Of a DNA stretch of 64,000 nt, positions 11,404 through 25,684 are shown one piece after another. This stretch comes from Nitrospirota bacterium (GTDB taxonomy: Bacteria; Nitrospirota; Thermodesulfovibrionia; Thermodesulfovibrionales; SM23-35). Under the pieces are notes generated by a model. The model was not told where the DNA came from, ran no database searches, and saw nothing but the letters and a program-made list of their open reading frames with translations. The DNA lies in the NCBI GenBank assembly GCA_963796125.1, contig CAWCKM010000050.1:10719-74718 (forward strand). Reading direction: 5' to 3'. The translations under genes were made by a program, and so were the position numbers. Within the stretch, counting starts at the first letter, position 1, and each line of letters opens with the position of its first letter.

Positions 11404-12190
11404 GTACTACCTCCTTTTTAATGTATCTTTAATGCTCCACATTATACTCAATTAAAGTAATAGTTTTAAAGAAGTTCTTTTCAATATCAAAATAATCAGT
11501 TAAGTAATCCTCAAAAACGGCTTATAGGATTTTGAGGAATCGTATTATGATTGTTGTGCAAGTCGCTACCGAAGTGAAGCATATCTCATGCGCTCTCAAT
11601 GAAGAACTGTCGGTTCTCCAGTGCTTGAGCTTTCCAAAATTCCTTGTCCATAAAACCCTCTTGCATTTCAGATCTGGATTACTTGATGAATCGGATTCTC
11701 AGCGTAGTATTTTGCTTTCCTTCAAACAGGTGTTTTATGGAGATAGAAGGCTATGTTGGAAAAACAGTCGATCCTCGAACCTCTGGCCGACTTAGCTCCG
11801 AGATAAGCAGAAGAGACTTTCTCACAGGAGCAAATGTTTTTACGTACCCTAATTATTATGCGCGTTTCTTCTGCAAGTCATTATTCGTCAGTCTATCTTT
11901 TCTCCGGGCTTGCTTCTTGCCTTTCAGAAAATAATCGCTTCAGAAACTCTTTGGACAAAATCAATAATCAAATCTGATACTGCTTATGAGTTCGAATGTT
12001 CCTAACCCTCTATCCATCAATGTGTTTGCATGAACAAGGAGATCATCTTCTTTCCGGCTGGAAGGCAAACTATTTAGGTTTGACAACATCATGCTGACAC
12101 TGGCAAAGCTGGTTTGACAATAATTCCATGATCTGATAGATTCCTACAAGATAATCGAGTTTGGAGCGACATAGTCTTGGAAGTACTAAT

Positions 12191-13126
12191 ATGGCTCATA
12201 TTTTCATTAGTTATACGCGACAAAATGAATCATATGTAGAAGCTCTTGAGAATGCTTTGCGCGCTCAAGGAATTACTATCTGGCGAGACCAAGAAAGTCT
12301 TTACGGCGGACAGCAGTGGCCGAAAAGCAATTGGTGAGGCTATTGCAGCAACTGACTTTTTTCTGCTGTTTTGGTCAAAAAGCGCTGCCGATTCTCACTT
12401 TGTTGAATTCGAATGGAACACAGCCGTGGCTTTGCGAAAGACTATAATACCATGCTTGCTCGATGATACTCCTCTTCCCCCTTTATTAAGAGGAACTCAC
12501 AGCATCAATGTGCTGAATCTTCAAGAGGCCATGCCAAGACTTCTATCTTCTCTTCAAGCGCACATACCTGAACTGTCCTCCAGGCAACACAGTTCTGAAG
12601 TCATAACGAACTCAGGAACATAGTTGTCACCGAACCAGAGCAAGTAGTCAGACAGGCTAAAGCCATCTTTAGCCAGGAGGGATGGAACATACAGGGGAAT
12701 GTCTACCAGGCTGCTGGCGATATTAACTTGACAATTCAGGGTGCCCCTGAACAGCCAAAATCTAAGTCTAAGCTTGATCCGTGGGTTAAGTGGGTCGGTT
12801 TAATTGCGACTGTCTTGGTCATTGTCATATCTTTGTTTACGTTATCAGGTAAAGTAAGGGAAACATTCTTTCCCCAGGCACAGACAACTCCTTTACGGGG
12901 TATTGTCCACAATGCAAATCAAGAGCCCTTGTCTGACGTTGTTGTTAATGTTCAGGAACTTCCAGGTGAGTCGGTCACAACCACAACCGATGGAGGATTC
13001 TATTTTTCGAAAATTCCAGGGAAGCCAGGAGACAGAGTGAGGGTTTATGCATCAAAAAATGGATACCGTCCACACAATGAGTACGTAACCTTACCAGGTC
13101 CAGTAAACATCATCTTGGAGAAATAA
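12191..13126 (+). CDS. TIR domain - single TM - carboxypeptidase-regulatory-like beta-sandwich protein (two frameshifts)
   Basis: Manual join: MAHIFISYTRQ...IWRDQESLYGGQQWP | AIGEAIA...WSKSAADSHFVEFEW...IIPCLLD | ...QGNVYQAAGDINL...WVGLIATVLVIVISLFTL...LRGIVHNANQEPL...TTTDGGFYF; breaks near 12325 (A run) and 12610. Confidence 0.8.
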
Positions 13127-13129
13127 GAA

Positions 13130-15360
13130 ATGAAGCAGTTTGTATTAGCCGTTGTCCTTGTTCTTTCCGGAATTGTACCGGTTCGCGCTCAGATTATTTT
13201 AAACGGAACTCTCCCAAGAAGATTCAGGCAAGGCTGTTCCAAATACTAAAATCAACTTGGCCGGCGGCCCATCAGAGATAACAGATGTAAAAGGCCAATT
13301 TTCAATAAGACTATCAAATGATTTCGTCGAAGGGGAGCGGGTTATTCTAACAGTATCAAAGAAGGACTGGTTTATAAATCACCCTTTAGATGGAGAATGG
13401 AATTTGCCAAATATTCGGTACCAGAAAGTGCATACTACGAAGGTTATTATTGTACCCAAGGGATCAAAAAAACTCTGGACCCATGAGCGCATCGAAAAAT
13501 ACGTTGCTAAATTGAACGATGAGCTTGTGAGAATGAAAAAAGCAGATAGTAAACCTAAGCCTGTAGAGTTCACATATTATCTGAGTGAGTGGGCCAATAA
13601 ATATGGATTTACCTATGACCAAGTGAAAGAGGAATTTGATCGATGGGCTAAGAGAATCTGAGAAATCGGAGGAAAGAAGAGCGAGATGTTTGAGCAGTTT
13701 TTATCAGAAGAATTTTGAGTTGTCTTCTTTGTGCTTCGAGGAATCTGCCTTAGAGGTACGGAATAAAAGAAAGAAGAAACAAGAAGAGTTAAGGCAGTTA
13801 AGCTTAAGTGAATATGAAGATTGGAAGCAATCAGGCAACTCTTATGCGATTATGTACCATTTTGAAAAAGCTTAACCATGTATGAGGAAGCAGAAAAACT
13901 TGTGACTATAAAAGAATTTCCGAAGGAATGGGCAGAGATAAGGTTGCTTATGGGAAATGTCAAGTTAGAGATTGGCATTAGAACTGAGGGAGAAAAGGGA
14001 AATAGGTATATATCGGAAGCTAAGCAACAGTACTTCCGGACTCTGGAAGTCTATACCCATAGAGATCTGCCGCAACAGTGGGCTACAACCCAAAACAACC
14101 TTGGCATTGCTCTTCAAGAGCAGGGTATCCGCACCGCCGGAGAAGAAGGGATACCGCTTCTTAGCCAGTCGGTACAAGCTTACCTTAATGCCCTTGAAGT
14201 CTTTACCCGTAAAGAGTTCCCGCAACAGTGGGCCATGACTCAAAACAACCTTGGCATTTCGCTTAATGAGCTGGGGAGCCGAACCGCTGGAGAAGAAGGA
14301 ATACGACTTCTTAGCCAGTCGGTACAAGCTTACCGTAATGCCCTTGAAGTCTATACCCGTGAAGATCTGCCGCAGGATTGGGCTATGACTCAAGACAACC
14401 TTGGTAATGCTCTTGGTCAACAGGGTGTATGGACCGCTGGAAAAGACAGGCATGGATCTTCTTGACAAGGCGATAGAAGCTCACCGCAATGCCCTTGAAG
14501 TCAGAACTCGTAAAGATCTGCCGCAGGACTGGGCTGCAACTCAAGACAACCTTGGTAATGCTTTTAGAGAAAAGGGAATGCGTACCGCTGGAAAAGAAGG
14601 CATGGATCTTCTTGACAAGGCGATAGAAGCTCACCGCAATGCCCTTGAAGTCAGAACCCGTAAAGATCTGCCGCAAAAGTGGGCGATCACTCAGAACAAC
14701 CTCGGCATTTCGCTTACTGAGTTGGGGAGCCGAAAGAGAAGCTATGGATCTTCTCGACCAAGCGGTAGAAGCTCTCCGTAATGCCCTTGAAGTCTATACC
14801 CGCAAAGAGTTCGCGCAACAGTGGGCCATGACTCAGGACAACCTTGGTAATGCTCTTATAGAAAAGGAAATGCGTACTTCTGGAAAAGAAGGCATGGATC
14901 TTCTCGACCAGGCAGTAGAAGCTTACCGTGCTGCCCTTGAAGTCAGGAACTCGTGAAGACCTGCCGCAGCAGTGGGCGATGACTCAGAACAACCTTGGTA
15001 ATGCTTTTAGAGAAAAAGGAATGCGTACCGCTGGACAAGACGGCATGGATTTTCTCGACCGGCGGTAGAAGCTTACCGTAATGCTCTTGAAGTCAGGACT
15101 CGCAAAGCTCTGCCGCAAAAGTGGGCCCTTACTCAGTATAATCTTGGCATTGTACTTAAAGATCTGGGTATTCGTACTGCTGGAGAAGAACGGTCTGCGG
15201 CTCTTCGGCCAGGCGGCAGAAGCTCTCCGTAATGCCCTTGAAGTCTATACCCGTGAAGAGTTCCCGCAACAGTGGGCCATAATTCGGAACAACCTTTGTG
15301 CTATTTATTTTGACCTTGAAGATTGGAAACATGCAGCAGATTGCAACGCGGATTTCTAAG
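13130..15360 (+). CDS. Exported protein: signal peptide, beta-sandwich, helical linker, 50-aa TPR array (multiple frameshifts, 3' end probably truncated)
   Basis: MKQFVLAVVLVLSGIVPVRA/Q; LNGTL...TDVKGQFSI; repeats ALEVxTRxxLPQxWAxTQ[ND]NLG across ORFs 13257-15359. Confidence 0.75.
14040..15300 (+). repeat. Tandem ~150-bp TPR-coding repeats
   Basis: GAAGTC (LEV) anchors at 14046, 14196, 14346, 14497, 14647, 14789, 14939, 15089, 15240. Confidence 0.9.
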
Positions 15361-15422
15361 AAATTTATTGTGATTTTCAAGAAGCTTACTAAGATCAAAT
15401 TAATTAAATTAAGAGATAAGAG

Positions 15423-16514
15423 GTAGAGTAGGGAACTGGCGTAGTGGCAAATGCCCTATCTCCAGTTCCCCCTCATCAAACCGTACGTTCAGTTTTCCCG
15501 AATACGGCTTTCCAATCATCTTCTTCCGGCGGCTTTCGCAGTCCGACTCCACGGGGCCGTCGTCGGTATCTTGTAAAGTCCGATAGTCGTCGTAGAGGTG
15601 CCGGTCAGGGAATGCTGTTATATCCTCTACTCTTCCTTCTGTGCTTCCGTCTCAGGTAGTCCGCACGCGCTGTCTCAAGGAATCGTTTTGAGGAGTTTCA
15701 GCAGGTCGTTACTACAGTGCCCATAGTAAAAATATTTACCCACCCCCGTATTGACGATCTCGTTGAGGTTTTGACAACTAGCTCTTCCGGTAATGCCAAG
15801 TGCTCCGCCCGGTCAGGTCTTTAGCTCCCTTGGATTTGCGCCATAGCTTTCTTGGCGGGCTCGGATAAAGGAAATTTCGACCGGTTTCGGGATGCTCTGA
15901 TCGCCTTACTCGTAAATCCAAGGAAAGTTAAAGCTCTCTTCCTCGAGCGTCTACCACTCGTGTCTTATCTCGTTCAGCTTCAGGCCGCGAAGCCCCCGAG
16001 GATCTTCTTGGATCCCCTTAATATCTTCTCCGTTTGCCTTTACACAATACGACAAAGTCATCGGCATACCTGATTAGCCTGGCCTCTATCCTCATCCTCT
16101 ATCTTCTTCACCTTCCATATCGTCATCCAGTACATTTAGATAAATGTTGGCGAGGAGCGGAGAGATTACTCCTCCCTGCGGCGTCCCTTGTCATTGCCTT
16201 TGTACCTCTTCTTGCATCCTTCTCTTCCTCCACCACCGGCGCTTTTAGCCATAGCTGGATAATTTAAGTATGTTCTTATCCACTATCCGTTTCGGCATCC
16301 AATCCAAGTAGTTTGTCGTGGGTATGGTGTCGAAGTACTTCGAGATGTCGGCGTCTATTACCTGAAGCTTCCCACTCGAAGGTGATAGATCACATCATCC
16401 ATGCTTGATGGGCATCCCGTTTCGGTCGGAATCCGTATGAGTTTTCCTCGAAATCCGCCTCGAAGATCGGCTCTATTACTATCTTTACCGCCATCTGCAC
16501 TATCCTGTCTTTTT
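15423..16514 (-). mobile_element. 5'-truncated, degenerate group II intron (RT/maturase remnant + domains V/VI)
   Basis: Minus strand: [54 protein letters not shown]; DV AAGCCGTATTCGGGAAAACTGAACGTACGGTTT (15478-15510); DVI stem GGGAACTGG/CCAGTTCCC ending CTCTAC at 15423. Confidence 0.9.
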
Positions 16515-16773
16515 TTAGGAAATTAGAGGGACACTTCCCGTATTATTGCGAGGTACCAGCATGCCAGAGAGATACTCTGTTACTAATAAAAATCTTCATT
16601 TTTCATCGAACATAAATATGCGGACTTGCAGGTGGAACACTCAACCTAAAAAAGGTTCAACCCTTCGATTCTTGCTTCCTGAATTTCAAACTTCAAAAAA
16701 TAGTAAAATAGAGTTGATTAAAAGAGGAAATCTATAGTGGGAATATTCGGAAAATCTTCACGCAACCACTTCA

Positions 16774-17107
16774 TCACTTTTGTATATTTTTAATCTTGCC
16801 AATCTTCTTCTCCAGAACAGACGGGTACAGCTTTTTCAATGCCTCTGTGCTTTTGATTGCATCTTTCCATTTCTTATCTATTTCATGCTTATTTGCATAG
16901 TAGAATGAAAGTGTCATCATGTACCTGAGATAGGGTAATATGAGGAAATGCAACTATTATATCTTCAGGTGACATACCCATGATTTCATATCTTATGGCA
17001 ATGTCCAGCACACGAATACCTGTGCCGGCAATAACGGGGTCACCACCCCTTATTTTTCTGTCAAAGGCAATATAAGGATGTTTGATCTGTTTTACTGATG
17101 TGCTCAT
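16774..17107 (-). CDS. DUF433 family putative antitoxin (frameshift near 16915)
   Basis: IRGGDPVIAGTGIRVLDI...FPHITLSQVHD(A)LSFYY. Confidence 0.8.
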
Positions 17108-17412
17108 ATATAATCACCCCCTATTTTTATTTTCCTGCAACCACTTTGTGCAATTGGCCTCTCATCGTGCTCACATTATACCATGTAGATTTTCTCTTTA
17201 GCCTTTCTGACGTGCGCTCACCAGTTACCGCCTTTCTATCCTGCAAAGGCTTCCGAAGGAACTGCGGCAGAGACCACAGGTGTAAAATTTATAGAATTTT
17301 TCCACAACATCCGCATTATGCCAATTACAGTTTTTGGGTTAATCCCCTGTTTTTTGTCCACTTGCCTTGACCTGCAGTTGTATTGTTTCCATGATTTTTT
17401 CTATAATTTTAG

Positions 17413-18120: not shown

Positions 18121-19133
18121 GAGTTGCCCTTGATGCGATGGGAGGCGATTATGCCCCTGCTGTCACTATTGAGGGCGCTATCGAGACCGTTAATGATTTT
18201 GAAGGCATAGATGTAATCCTTGTCGGTGATGAGAATTCAATAAAAAGAGAGCTCGATAGCAAGAGACACCTCCCGAACCGTATTTCCATAAAACATGCTT
18301 CTCAGGTTGTGGGAATGGATGAGGCACCTGCTGCTGCGATCAGAAAAAAGAGGGATTCGTCCATAGGTCGGGCTATTGAGCTTGTTAAGAATGGCGAAGC
18401 CGATGCCATGGTGAGTGCCGGACACTCCGGCGTTGTCATGGCAACAGCACTTCTTTTTCTCCGTACATCTCCAGGCGTTGACAGACCTGCCATTGCAACG
18501 ATTATGCCGACTCTCAAAGCTCCCTTTGTTCTCATTGATGCAGGTGCAAATCTCTATTGCAAGCCTGAAAACCTTTATCAGTTTGGATTGATGGGAAGCG
18601 CATACTGCAGTGCAATTTTTGGAAGGACAGAGGCAAAAGTCGCCCTTCTCAGCATCGGAGAAGAGGATACAAAGGGGAACGAACTCACCAAAGAGTCGTT
18701 CAAACTTCTGAAAAAGGCTGATATCAACTTTATCGGCAATGTGGATGGAAAAGATATTTTTACTGGAATCGCCGATGTCATAGTTTGTGACGGGTTTACC
18801 GGTAACGTGGTATTGAAAATAAGTGAGGGTCTTGCAGATGCGATCGTAAAGATTCTCAAGCGGGAAATCGCAGAGCAGTCTGTAGGAAGGATTGCATACC
18901 TCCTGATGAAATCTGCCTTGATCAGTTTCAAGAAAAAGACAGATTATGACGAATATGGGGGCGCGCCTCTCCTTGGAATAAATGGCACATGCATTATAAG
19001 TCACGGACGATCAACAGCAAAGGCAATAAAGAATGCCCTGAGAGTTGCAGCAGATTTCTCAGAGAAACGTGTGTATGAGGTCATTGCATCCAAAATAGAA
19101 AAAGGTATGGTGGAAAAGGTTGACAAGAACTAA
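18117..19133 (+). CDS. plsX: Phosphate acyltransferase
   Basis: ALDAMGGDYAP, VCDGFTGNV, GGAPLLG, SHGRS. Confidence 0.96.
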   Translation: MRVALDAMGGDYAPAVTIEGAIETVNDFEGIDVILVGDENSIKRELDSKRHLPNRISIKHASQVVGMDEAPAAAIRKKRDSSIGRAIELVKNGEADAMVSAGHSGVVMATALLFLRTSPGVDRPAIATIMPTLKAPFVLIDAGANLYCKPENLYQFGLMGSAYCSAIFGRTEAKVALLSIGEEDTKGNELTKESFKLLKKADINFIGNVDGKDIFTGIADVIVCDGFTGNVVLKISEGLADAIVKILKREIAEQSVGRIAYLLMKSALISFKKKTDYDEYGGAPLLGINGTCIISHGRSTAKAIKNALRVAADFSEKRVYEVIASKIEKGMVEKVDKN

Positions 19134-20101
19134 AATTGTCTCCACGGGTTCCTACCTACCGGAAAAAGTCCTTACCAATTTTGATCTTGAAAAGATGGTC
19201 GAAACTTCAGATCAGTGGATTACCGAAAGAACAGGGATAAAGGAACGGAGGATAGCGAATGGAAACCAGGCAGCATCGGACCTTGCCTATGATGCATCGA
19301 AGGTAGCCCTTGGAAGAGCTGACCTTAATGCAGAAGATATTGACCTTATTATTACAGCAACAGTTACGGGTGATATGCCTTTCCCATCAACTGCCTGTAT
19401 TCTGCAGGATAAACTCGGTGCTAAAAAAGCAGCAGCTTTTGATATCAATGCAGCCTGTTCAGGTTTCCTTTACGGTCTTTATGTTGCGGACAGTTTCATA
19501 CGTTCAGGAATGCATAAAAAAATCCTTGTTGTCGGAACTGAGGTGCTCTCAAAGATTACTGATTGGGAAGATAGAACTACCTGTATTTTGTTTGGTGATG
19601 GCGCGGGTGCTGTGATTGTTGAACCTACTACAGAAGACAGGGGTATCATCTCAATGTCTATCAATTCTGATGGCAGTATGTGGGATCTCCTCCATATGCC
19701 TGCTGGTGGTTCAAAGATACCCGCATCAAGAGAATCTGTTGATAATAAACTCCATTACATTAAAATGAAGGGTAACGAGACATTCAAATTTGCTGTCCGG
19801 ACACTCGAGGATCTTGTTATAAATATCCTTGAAGAAAACAAGCTTGACTCCTTCACAGCTTTCCCTCCTTATCCCTCACCAGGCAAATCTGAGAATCATA
19901 CAGGCGACTGCTGACAGACTTGGACTCCCGATGGAAAAAGTCCTTATTAATATTGACAAGTACGGAAATACCTCGGCTGCATCTATCCCGATTGCGCTTG
20001 ATGAAGCTCTCACAACAGGAAGAGTTAAAGAAGGAGACTACATCCTTCTCGAGGCCTTCGGCGGTGGCCTCACCTGGGCCTCTGCATTGATAAAGTGGTA
20101 G
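19120..20101 (+). CDS. fabH: Beta-ketoacyl-ACP synthase III (frameshift near 19850)
   Basis: [35 protein letters not shown]. Confidence 0.93.
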
Positions 20102-24492: not shown

Positions 24493-25684
24493 TCAGTATT
24501 GATGTGGAGGGCCATTGCACCTAAAAGGAAGCAGAAGCTCTACCCTGAGAATCGTGCCTTTCTTGCAAACCGGACAAGTAGTGATATCAATACCGCAGAT
24601 TCTGAGCAACTGATCCTGCCAGGTCTCTGGTTTTTCTTTTTCTTTTGTTACGGTTTTACAACTGCCAATGAGCTCACGGCATAGGGCGATGTTGTCTTTA
24701 CGGCTTCTGTTTGCCAGAAGTCCGAAGTGTCTTATGCGCACATATCGATGGGGCAATACATGAAGAAGGAACCTTCTTATGAACTCATCGGCCTTGAGAG
24801 TCATGGTCTTTTGTTTATCACCATCGGCATAGTCCCGCCAGCGGAAAGAGACATTGCCGTCCTGGACCTTGAGGATACGGTTATTACTGATAGCGATCCT
24901 GTGGGTATATCTGCCCAGATACTTAAGGACACCCTCAGCGCCGTCAAAAGGTGGCTTGCAATAGACAACCCACTTTTTATGGTAGAACTGTCCTCTGAAC
25001 ATTTCAAAGACATCGGGGTTCTTTCAGATGACGGATGCCGCCGGGGAAGATAAGATCACCCGATTCAAAACTGCTTTTGAGATAGTCCAGGAACTTGCCC
25101 CTGAACAACGAGGACATAACCCTTACAGGGATGAAAAACCCTTTTCTGCATGACACCCAGCGACTTCCATCGGGAGATAGTCCGCCGCCGGGTACGACAC
25201 AGTGAATATGGGGATGATCCATAAGGTTCTGTCCCCAGGTGTGAAGGATGCCGATAAACCCTATGTATGCGCCAAGATGTTTCGGATTATTGGAGAGTTC
25301 CATAAGCGTCTCGGAGACCGAGCGGAATAGTATGTTGTACATTACCCTCTGATTCATGATGACCAGGGGATTTAACTCTGATGGTATGGTGAACACTACA
25401 TGGAAGTATTGAATGGGCAATAGGTCTTCGCATCTGGCCTCAATCCACTTCTCTTTCTGCAGGGTCTGGCACTTGGGACAGTGCCGGTTCCTGCAGGAGT
25501 TGTAGGAGATATCCACATGGCCGCAGCTATACTTATACCTATGCCCGCCAAGGATTGCAGTCCTGCACACCTCAATGGCATGCATGGCGCGCAGATGATT
25601 AAGAGGCATCGGGTGAGATCTTCTATATTCTGGACCGTGCAGACGAAAGATATCCGCCACCTCAACGCCCTGAGACGTCCGCAT
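24493..25684 (-). CDS. IS91 family (HUH/Y2) transposase (frameshift near 25003)
   Basis: YNSCRNRHCPKCQ, FHVVFT, LHTWG...HPHIH, YLGRYTHRIAI, RIRHFGLL. Confidence 0.92.

Follow-up and report, generated by a model that had tools for sequence, protein, structure and literature searches.

A frame-broken locus of a Nitrospirota bacterium and its apparently undescribed two-gene family: a candidate TIR or CHAT receptor of the inner membrane

Whether a bacterium can wire a sensor outside its inner membrane to a TIR effector inside it is the question raised by a short locus from a Nitrospirota bacterium (Thermodesulfovibrionales, SM23-35). The locus lies at 12191–15360 of the window, that is, of the 64,000-nucleotide stretch of contig CAWCKM010000050.1 (assembly GCA_963796125.1, positions 10,719 to 74,718 of the forward strand) that was analyzed as a whole, and consists of two adjacent genes on the plus strand, both interrupted by frame breaks. 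An earlier note, made from the sequence alone, had read the two genes as a Toll-like receptor split in two, with a membrane-bound TIR effector and an exported sensor built of TPR units. In the present analysis, the gene pair was found to belong to a widespread and apparently undescribed two-gene family, and the locus is read as a self-contained two-gene module, an apparently undescribed TIR or CHAT receptor spanning the inner membrane, for which the chances are considered about even. What is grounded directly is the architecture, together with the conserved pairing of the genes, the homology between two beta-sandwiches, the swapping of effectors, and the occurrence of fusions; the topology, the docking of the sandwiches, the ligand, and the enzymatic output are what we infer. 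The parts of the two genes are as follows.

12191 to 13126, plus strand: gene 1, encoding a TIR domain, a linker, a single transmembrane (TM) helix, and a CarboxypepD_reg-like beta-sandwich; the intact 321-residue relative P0001 aligns over all three frame pieces
12200 to 12518, plus strand: TIR_2 domain; Pfam PF13676 matches both of the first pieces of gene 1
12560 to 12760, plus strand: conserved linker, predicted cytoplasmic, with two helices followed by the motif QGNVYQAxG; alignments of relatives and the model of an Aquiflexum orthologue (L009)
about 12791 to 12844, plus strand: single TM helix with KSKSK just before it; sequence, relatives, and a model helix at residues 193–224
12893 to 13096, plus strand: C-terminal CarboxypepD_reg or transthyretin-like beta-sandwich of gene 1; Pfam PF13620 and Foldseek
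13130 to 15359, plus strand: gene 2, in nine frame pieces, encoding a signal peptide, a beta-sandwich, a helical region, and an array of 50-residue TPR-like repeats
13130 to 13192, plus strand: signal-peptide-like N-terminus, MKQFVLAVVLVLSGIVPVRAQ; sequence and relatives
13193 to 13480, plus strand: N-terminal beta-sandwich of gene 2, homologous to that of gene 1; model of the L009 orthologue, Foldseek, and hhalign
13481 to 14045, plus strand: helical region with a conserved EWA.KYGF motif, a long helix, and then the first degenerate repeats; model helices 118–142, 156–199, and 203–248, and alignment
14046 to 15296, plus strand: tandem array of 150-nucleotide (50-residue) TPR_10/TPR_12-like units, 8.4 copies with 76% matches; Tandem Repeats Finder

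Gene 1 starts at an ATG at 12191 (an alternative TTG start lies at 12161), ends with a TAA at 13124–13126, and is read in three frame pieces, namely 12191 to about 12322, about 12323 to 12612, and about 12613 to 13126. When its two frame changes are read through, the intact relative P0001 is reproduced; this closest intact relative is 92% identical to the C-terminal piece, and itself scores 83.7 bits for TIR_2 and 34.8 bits for CarboxypepD_reg. In the window, the TIR_2 scores are 36.1 bits (12191–12334) and 37.4 bits (12246–12620), against a cut-off of 28, and the C-terminal piece matches CarboxypepD_reg at 33.7 bits (cut-off 32.3, E 4.8e-8). All of the parts that the earlier note had assigned to this gene (TIR domain, linker, KSKSK patch, TM helix, and beta-sandwich) were thus recovered where it had put them, by Pfam, in the sequence, and in structural models.

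The TIR domain contains both the 'FISY' box and the SHFVEFEW motif, in which a catalytic-type Glu had been suspected. The second E of this motif (codon 12411–12413) is that Glu: in a profile alignment with Protein Data Bank sequences, it sits under the Glu of the W-x-x-x-E motif in Cat1 (WCWDE), 7uxr (WTEYE), and SARM1, which we take to be the catalytic residue of these TIR structures. No exception to it occurs in either of two alignments, one of 8 intact relatives and one of 37 relatives. Foldseek matches of the modeled TIR are to the TIRs of SPARTA, BtpA, and SARM1. The gene 1 TIR is a candidate for cleavage of NAD+, judged from sequence.

Gene 2 begins with an ATG at 13130, 3 nucleotides past the gene 1 stop, and ends with a TAA at 15357–15359; the signal peptide, the similar beta-sandwich, and the repeat array that had been expected in it are all present. 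The estimate of about nine TPR units holds as a count, being close to the 8.4 copies found, but not as to kind, since the units are 50-residue hairpins resembling TPR_10 and TPR_12 rather than 34-residue TPRs. Pfam scores for TPR_12, TPR_10, and TPR_1 are weak on the single pieces of gene 2 and mostly under the cut-off. The gene 2 sandwich, within which a frame break falls near 13215, between LNGTL and AVPNTKI, has no Pfam match in the window piece, and was recognized by its fold and by its profile homology to the gene 1 sandwich. In Foldseek searches, both sandwiches match the SusC NTE domain 9hfj (TMt 0.84 for gene 1 and 0.68 for gene 2) and the transthyretin-like domains of carboxypeptidases D/N. 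Comparison of the two sandwich profiles by hhalign gave a probability of 97.9% and an E of 5.6e-13 over 81 columns, and on these profiles the two sandwiches are homologous.

The pair is not peculiar to this genome. Searches of 5.8 billion proteins matched pieces of the locus to relatives at E 1e-18 to 1e-72; the C-terminal piece of gene 1 matches intact proteins of 310–326 residues carrying TIR_2 and CarboxypepD_reg, and the 134-residue N-terminal piece of gene 2 found 47 relatives of 264–1005 residues at 51–74% identity. A scan of one genome per species (185,579 species), which required one of two sequence patterns, yielded 46 loci, and metagenomes yielded another 80; these 126 loci comprise 112 distinct ones, with 70 full TIR-plus-linker open reading frames (ORFs), 62 of them informative in having at least 400 nucleotides downstream. 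The hosts of the genome loci are Nitrospira, other Nitrospirota, Acidobacteriota, KSB1, Calditrichia, Nitrospinota, Syntrophales, and Nitrosomonas, and isolates of Aquiflexum, Cyclobacterium, Algoriphagus, and Nitrosomonas carry the pair, with intact copies in Aquiflexum gelatinilyticum (L009), Cyclobacterium salsum (L011), and Nitrosomonas sp. PY1 (P0214). In 54 of the 62 informative loci, the N-terminal domain of gene 2 follows directly downstream on the same strand, and 38 of these 54 pairs overlap by 4 or 1 nucleotides, so that the pairing seen in the window is conserved across genomes. The exceptions are one locus with gene 2 lying 907 nucleotides downstream (L032), one with gene 2 upstream (L067), four with variants of about 400 residues and another C-terminus (L028, L029, L030, and L033), and two in which no gene 2 was seen (L016 and L054).

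Across these pairs, the length of protein 2 ranges from 435 to 1457 residues, with wide variation in the length of the repeat array, and the effector also varies. In P0009, P0226, and L050, a CHAT domain replaces the TIR domain before the same TM helix and sandwich, the gene 2 relative in L050 starting 1 nucleotide after the CHAT-type gene 1; the effector swapping that had been looked for is thereby documented. As far as sequences tell, protein 2 as a whole stays constant across the family, as do the sandwich and TM helix of protein 1; what varies is the type of effector (TIR or CHAT) and how long the repeat array is. A constant adaptor and sensor combined with a variable effector and array is the pattern of a sensor-adaptor-effector system. 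P0011 combines several TM helices with the sandwich, and its contig equals in length that of the gene 2 relative P0025; the contig of P0226 likewise matches in length that of two gene 2 relatives. A search with a profile of the TM helix plus sandwich was dominated by giant proteins with many CarboxypepD_reg repeats and gave no usable view of effector diversity.

Four single-chain proteins join the TIR domain and linker to a part of gene 2, without a TM helix (L034:774-2009, L114:770-2488, L116:892-3678, and L122:5647-7194), and these fusions, as read from their sequences, tie the two halves of the system together functionally. They hold a sandwich or stalk plus TPR-like repeats, the one in L116 being without a sandwich altogether. 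In Acidobacteriota, fusions of the same TIR clade with a Ser/Thr kinase, a TM helix, and TPRs are also seen (L039:2882-5446 and L038:5699-7867); the sequence of the former shows that one protein, too, can combine a predicted cytoplasmic TIR with TPRs on the far side of a TM helix. A neighboring gene family, present in 5 loci, combines a TPR-S domain with a nucleotide cyclase domain.

On which side of the membrane the parts lie was judged from models and from the relatives. In the AlphaFold model of the Aquiflexum protein 1 (mean predicted local distance difference test score, pLDDT, 86), the TIR domain (1–123) is followed by helices (131–162), a low-confidence segment (169–191), a long helix (193–224), and the sandwich (235–311). 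In that of the Aquiflexum protein 2 (mean pLDDT 90), an N-terminal helix (2–15) precedes the sandwich (22–109), helices extend to residue 248, and the repeats follow. A hydrophobic 19-mer, the predicted TM helix, follows the linker in 95 of 99 distinct protein 1 relatives, with 282 Lys and Arg residues in the 15 residues before it and 195 in the 15 after. The N-terminus is hydrophobic in 97 of 102 protein 2 relatives, and a small-x-small motif comes next in 96 of those 97; among the five exceptions, four begin within the signal segment or where it ends, and one has a less hydrophobic stretch farther from its start. This hydropathy, the positive-inside bias, and the signal-peptide-like N-termini would fit a TIR in the cytoplasm, a sandwich facing outward, and a partner that is exported. 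The motif QGNVYQAxG (about 12690–12720), nearly invariant and modeled at low confidence, ends the linker just ahead of the basic patch and the TM helix; that it might be a strand-forming self-association element is speculation.

The same segments bear on a different arrangement, in which both proteins would be cytoplasmic or peripheral and form an ordinary cytoplasmic TIR-plus-TPR system, with hydrophobic segments that neither span nor cross the membrane. TM-less fusions do exist, and a two-gene cytoplasmic TIR/TPR system, BcTir/Tpr, has been reported, according to the portions of the preprint at hand (bioRxiv 10.1101/2023.05.26.542521). However, the 19-residue hydrophobic helix persists in 95 of 99 relatives of protein 1, and an N-terminus with the n-, h-, and c-regions of a signal peptide persists in 97 of 102 relatives of protein 2; such conservation is unexplained unless the segments act at the membrane. 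A wholly cytoplasmic system is considered very improbable.

For the membrane-spanning receptor, the following mechanism is proposed. Protein 1 would hold an N-terminal TIR of the NAD-cleaving type in the cytoplasm, followed by the linker and the TM helix, and would present its sandwich at the outer face of that membrane, the inner one. Protein 2, usually translationally coupled to protein 1, would be exported by means of its signal peptide, and would bring with it a sandwich, a helical stalk, and a length-variable array of 50-residue repeats. The two sandwiches would pair in the periplasm and so couple the repeat array to protein 1. Binding of a periplasmic ligand by the array, for example a phage, competitor, or envelope-damage signal, would cluster protein 1 and thereby activate its TIRs, which would either use up NAD+ or produce a signal; in the CHAT variants, a caspase-like protease would be activated instead. 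Oligomerization is what switches on other enzymatic TIRs.

If this mechanism applies, the family could represent pattern recognition in diderm bacteria of the kind known from Toll-like receptors, with an exported repeat array, paired sandwich adaptors, a TM helix, and a cytoplasmic TIR NADase or CHAT protease, a proposal that is put forward tentatively, as possible but doubtful. To our knowledge, and likewise in the literature searched, the trigger of the described bacterial TIR systems is perceived in the cytoplasm. With an exported repeat sensor connected to a TIR or CHAT effector, a cell would be able to detect attack at its envelope, and, if the proposal is true, immunity or suicide would be triggered before or without any cytoplasmic cue. 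The module comprises just two genes, and because it is present in isolates (of the four genera named above), the idea is directly testable.

In animal Toll-like receptors, a single TM helix joins a solenoid ectodomain to a cytoplasmic TIR, and activation follows from ligand-induced clustering. In the pair described here, the repeats are TPR-like and not leucine-rich, the TIR is N-terminal and of the enzymatic type, and the receptor is split in two; common descent is not implied, and the parallel probably arose by convergence. In Avs and other STAND NTPases, a TPR array serves as the sensor and a TIR effector is activated by oligomerization. The logic of TPR sensor and TIR effector is the same, but the pair has no P-loop NTPase, and places the two functions on separate chains at predicted opposite sides of the membrane. 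No P-loop NTPase domain was detected by Pfam in P0001, P0009, or five gene 2 relatives, which sets the family apart from STAND, Avs, and NLR-like proteins. Neither an NTPase nor a cyclase was found near the locus, in line with the earlier note, which had seen no STAND NTPase or cyclase there.

The earlier note had not recognized a named system, and none was found in the databases searched. Whole-protein matches in PADLOC v2 are lacking: protein 1 gave only TIR- or CHAT-domain hits, with weak domain-level TIR matches to the ThsB, SAVED-TIR, and Aga TIR models, and of five protein 2 relatives four gave none and one a repeat-level match to Csx16. NCBIfam holds no family for either protein; its matches, like those to the PADLOC TIR models, concern just the TIR domain and score far under the cut-offs. 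The pair is not described in the main texts of the literature searched, although the supplements of two eLife papers (PMC7159879 and PMC8195603) may list the architecture; no paper pairing 'TIR domain' with 'CarboxypepD_reg' was found there.

The closest logic is offered by two described systems, as far as the consulted sections of the respective papers go, and both differ in defining parts. The adaptor-domain conflict systems (Kaur et al., 2020, eLife, PMC7159879) likewise have adjacent effector and repeat-sensor genes with the same small adaptor on both and with TIR/CHAT swaps. As those sections describe them, they differ in that the adaptor here is a CarboxypepD_reg-like sandwich and not a named EAD, in that there is no NTPase core, and in that a TM helix or signal peptide precedes adaptor and sensor; the 'System 4' described there (EACC1 plus caspase) has a different architecture from the pair. 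DdvA-DdvS of Myxococcus xanthus (Sci Adv 2024, PMC11506125) resembles the pair in using a single-pass inner-membrane protein, with a large TPR-containing sensor in the periplasm, to relay a phage-related signal to the cytoplasm. In DdvA, on the account given in the excerpted text, the CHAT domain is periplasmic, an anti-sigma domain is cytoplasmic, and the output is transcription after proteolysis (PMC11506125). In the pair, by comparison with that account, the TIR or CHAT is predicted to be cytoplasmic, sensing would fall to a second protein that is predicted to be exported, and there is no linked sigma factor; Pfam found no anti-sigma domain, and CHAT precedes the TM helix without a signal peptide.

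Two further TIR systems are more distant, again as represented in the portions of the preprints at hand. Thoeris and other TIR defense systems (bioRxiv 10.64898/2025.12.03.692087) share a TIR with a catalytic-type Glu; the pair differs in having no ThsA-like or other signal-sensing effector gene nearby in 112 loci, and in its predicted membrane anchoring of the TIR. BcTir/BcTpr of Bacillus cereus (bioRxiv 10.1101/2023.05.26.542521), compared here by description only, is also a two-gene TIR-plus-TPR operon, with reported protection against phage, but its NADase lies in the N-terminal domain of the TPR protein, and no TM helix, signal peptide, or sandwich is described in the available text.

The contact between the two sandwiches, on which the proposed receptor depends, had been put forward in the earlier note as docking in the periplasm. 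The homology of the two domains agrees with that claim, and docking of the two sandwich regions reached a verdict of weak support, with a median score of 0.55 (runs of 0.46, 0.69, and 0.55) against 0.01 for the best control, at least 95% of contacts agreeing between runs and a partner pLDDT of at least 75. Of 80 solved complexes, 58 reached the mark applied, as did 2 of 110 mismatched pairs; these counts hold only roughly for this case, in which self-made alignments were used. At scores of 0.60 or below, only 7 of the 80 solved complexes passed, along with both of the passing mismatches.

A contact of this kind could also serve inhibition. In such a guard or toxin-antitoxin-like arrangement, protein 2 would keep protein 1 molecules apart through the sandwich contact, and loss of its export or synthesis, for instance when infection or a loss of membrane potential halts protein 2, would allow protein 1 to self-associate and the TIR to fire. 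The tight translational coupling (38 of 54 pairs overlapping by 4 or 1 nucleotides), the homologous sandwiches with their weak docking, and the lack of any conserved third gene would all suit this arrangement, yet a long, length-variable repeat array is needless for a mere inhibitor, and the fused single-chain forms cannot work by loss of a partner. The guard arrangement is considered quite improbable.

Returning to the receptor, whether it could operate in this very organism depends on what the frame breaks are. The earlier note had counted two single-base indels in the locus. Two frame changes do occur in gene 1, where the repaired protein matches the 321-residue P0001, but gene 2 has eight more, giving a total of ten. 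Their positions, which are approximate, were obtained by three-frame translation and by tblastn with intact relatives.

12322, plus strand: frame break (+1) in gene 1
12612, plus strand: frame break (−1) in gene 1
13215, plus strand: frame break (+1) in gene 2
13654, plus strand: frame break (+1) in gene 2
13866, plus strand: frame break (−1) in gene 2
14447, plus strand: frame break (+1) in gene 2
14733, plus strand: frame break (+1) in gene 2
14946, plus strand: frame break (+1) in gene 2
15060, plus strand: frame break (−1) in gene 2
15195, plus strand: frame break (+1) in gene 2

The ratio of +1 to −1 breaks is 7:3, none of the pieces between the breaks contains a stop codon, and no large deletion is seen. 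Near-identical short contigs from four soil and sediment metagenomes have one base fewer at five or six of the break sites, namely 12322, 13653/13654, 14447, 14733, and 14946; the metagenome contigs on the locus are short and of low depth, and the stretches that they leave uncovered carry no meaning.

The rate of such breaks elsewhere in the assembly was estimated with 236 non-overlapping ORFs of at least 200 residues from 400 kb of a genome of the same family (G007), which were searched against the genome of the window. At 40% identity and 70% coverage or more, 105 orthologous genes (120.5 kb) were retained, 28 of which switch frame; the 39 switches, 30 of them +1 and 9 of them −1, amount to 0.32 per kb. 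The conserved gene fabH (window 19099–20101, plus strand) is itself split near 19840–19860, its ACP_syn_III part ending at 19914 and its C-terminal part continuing in another frame at 19823–20101. Switches also cluster in conserved genes, six lying within about 5.2 kb on contig C19 (2300–7500) and five within about 2.2 kb on contig C42 (62400–64700). The cores of the high-scoring segment pairs contain 32 stops, in 11 pairs from 9 genes; because nonsense codons and out-of-frame stretches are inseparable there, nothing was concluded from them. Clustered frame switches were also seen on contig C18 (67800–69600), and at 24493–25684 of the window, on the minus strand, two adjacent ORFs of 169 and 226 residues are the halves of one G007 orthologue, with a switch near C50:35734 (match C50:35238-36381).

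The breaks are probably artifacts because conserved genes, including fabH, are frame-shifted with the same +1 bias; the lack of nonsense codons between them and the missing bases in the metagenome contigs point the same way, and single-base indels in this assembly are not trustworthy because 28 of 105 conserved genes are broken. Frame-shifting errors occur roughly once in every 3 kb of its conserved coding sequence, so that apparent pseudogenes in the assembly should not be taken at face value, and the earlier advice to polish the indels was apt, the whole assembly bearing such errors. The ten breaks are thus most likely assembly errors, and the organism probably has intact genes, a conclusion held with fair though not firm confidence. 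Tandem repeats, a lower coverage of an accessory locus, which would itself be an assumption, and the known clustering of errors may have raised the local error rate.

Intact ORFs of up to 1474 residues elsewhere in the genome, with 31 ORFs of at least 800 residues, would speak for decay, but the broken fabH and the 28 of 105 conserved genes displace it as the leading reading. On this explanation, many small indels have turned an acquired accessory locus into a real pseudogene pair, with nothing functional here and a family that may work elsewhere. It draws on the ten breaks in 3.17 kb, which far exceed the rate in conserved genes, on the accessory character of the locus, with no DNA match in 40 relatives, no gene 2 profile match in 60, and a G+C content of 0.494, and on a fragment of a mobile group II intron directly downstream. 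It has to reckon with the same type of break in 28 of 105 conserved genes, fabH included, with a +1 to −1 ratio (7:3) that matches that of the genome (30:9), with the absence of nonsense codons and large deletions between the breaks, with comparable clusters in conserved genes on C19 and C42, and with the tandem repeats and the probably lower coverage that would raise the error rate. On balance, decay is somewhat unlikely.

Several observations weigh against the receptor as read here, both in this genome and in the family. At 3.2 breaks per kb, the locus is ten times as densely broken as the genome is on average (0.32 per kb); the Poisson tail is 1.4e-7 if the mean rate is assumed, and 0.0016 if the rate of the worst contigs (1.0 per kb) is taken instead. 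The source reads were not found, the best sequencing run containing a fraction of 0.15 of the sampled words of the locus. The topology was derived from simple hydropathy and charge counts. A docking pass as weak as that of the modeled sandwiches proves false in more cases than not, except for a contact that was already probable before docking. The TM-less fusions, a form read as cytoplasmic, indicate that the same module, its sensor part included, can function wholly in the cytoplasm, and they weaken the idea of a ligand specific to the periplasm. There is also no defense-island signal: among 140 non-redundant neighbors within 4 kb of 74 loci, no PADLOC family matched more than two. Single neighbors match ZorD/DpdE-like helicases, mad2/mad3, and PDC families, as raw counts.

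The genomic setting bears on what the receptor would be for. In the window, the neighbors are genes for HU and a flavin mononucleotide reductase and the yceD-rpmF-plsX-fabH genes. An envelope-spanning receptor might serve physiology, such as envelope stress, cell-cell recognition, or developmental signaling, with a TIR that makes a nucleotide signal and does not kill. The placement of the pair amid housekeeping genes with no defense-island signal would agree with such a role, as would the many Nitrospira species representatives that carry the pair in shared synteny and the single-chain kinase fusion that the same TIR clade forms in Acidobacteriota (L039). Against this stand the swapping of TIR and CHAT, effector swapping being a hallmark of conflict systems, as also described in one survey (Kaur et al., 2020, PMC7159879), the patchy distribution (46 loci from the genomes of 185,579 species, in the pattern-restricted scan), and the wide variation in repeat-array length, with proteins of 435–1457 residues. 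A role in physiology and not in defense is regarded as unlikely.

Clustering of neighboring ORFs revealed no conserved third gene across the 112 loci. The recurrent neighbors are of the housekeeping type, include an ABC transporter, a PAS histidine kinase, RmlD, and DUF1295, each in 16 loci or fewer, and probably reflect synteny among related genomes. The locus was not found in relatives of the organism of the window, with 0 of 40 by DNA and 0 of 60 by the gene 2 profile, bar one match at the level of the TPRs, and the same genome holds no paralogues of the pair. The G+C content is 0.494 in 14001–16000, compared with 0.35–0.49, mostly near 0.42, across the rest of the window, a rise that fits a horizontally acquired locus.

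Downstream of the pair, 64 nucleotides past the gene 2 stop, Rfam detected a group II intron match on the minus strand (15423–15512, 48.7 bits), with no long ORF for an intron protein in 15400–17400. A second intron copy, of 116 nucleotides and 85% identity, lies on contig C47, and metagenome contigs pile up on 15406–15500 at depths of about 400–1100.

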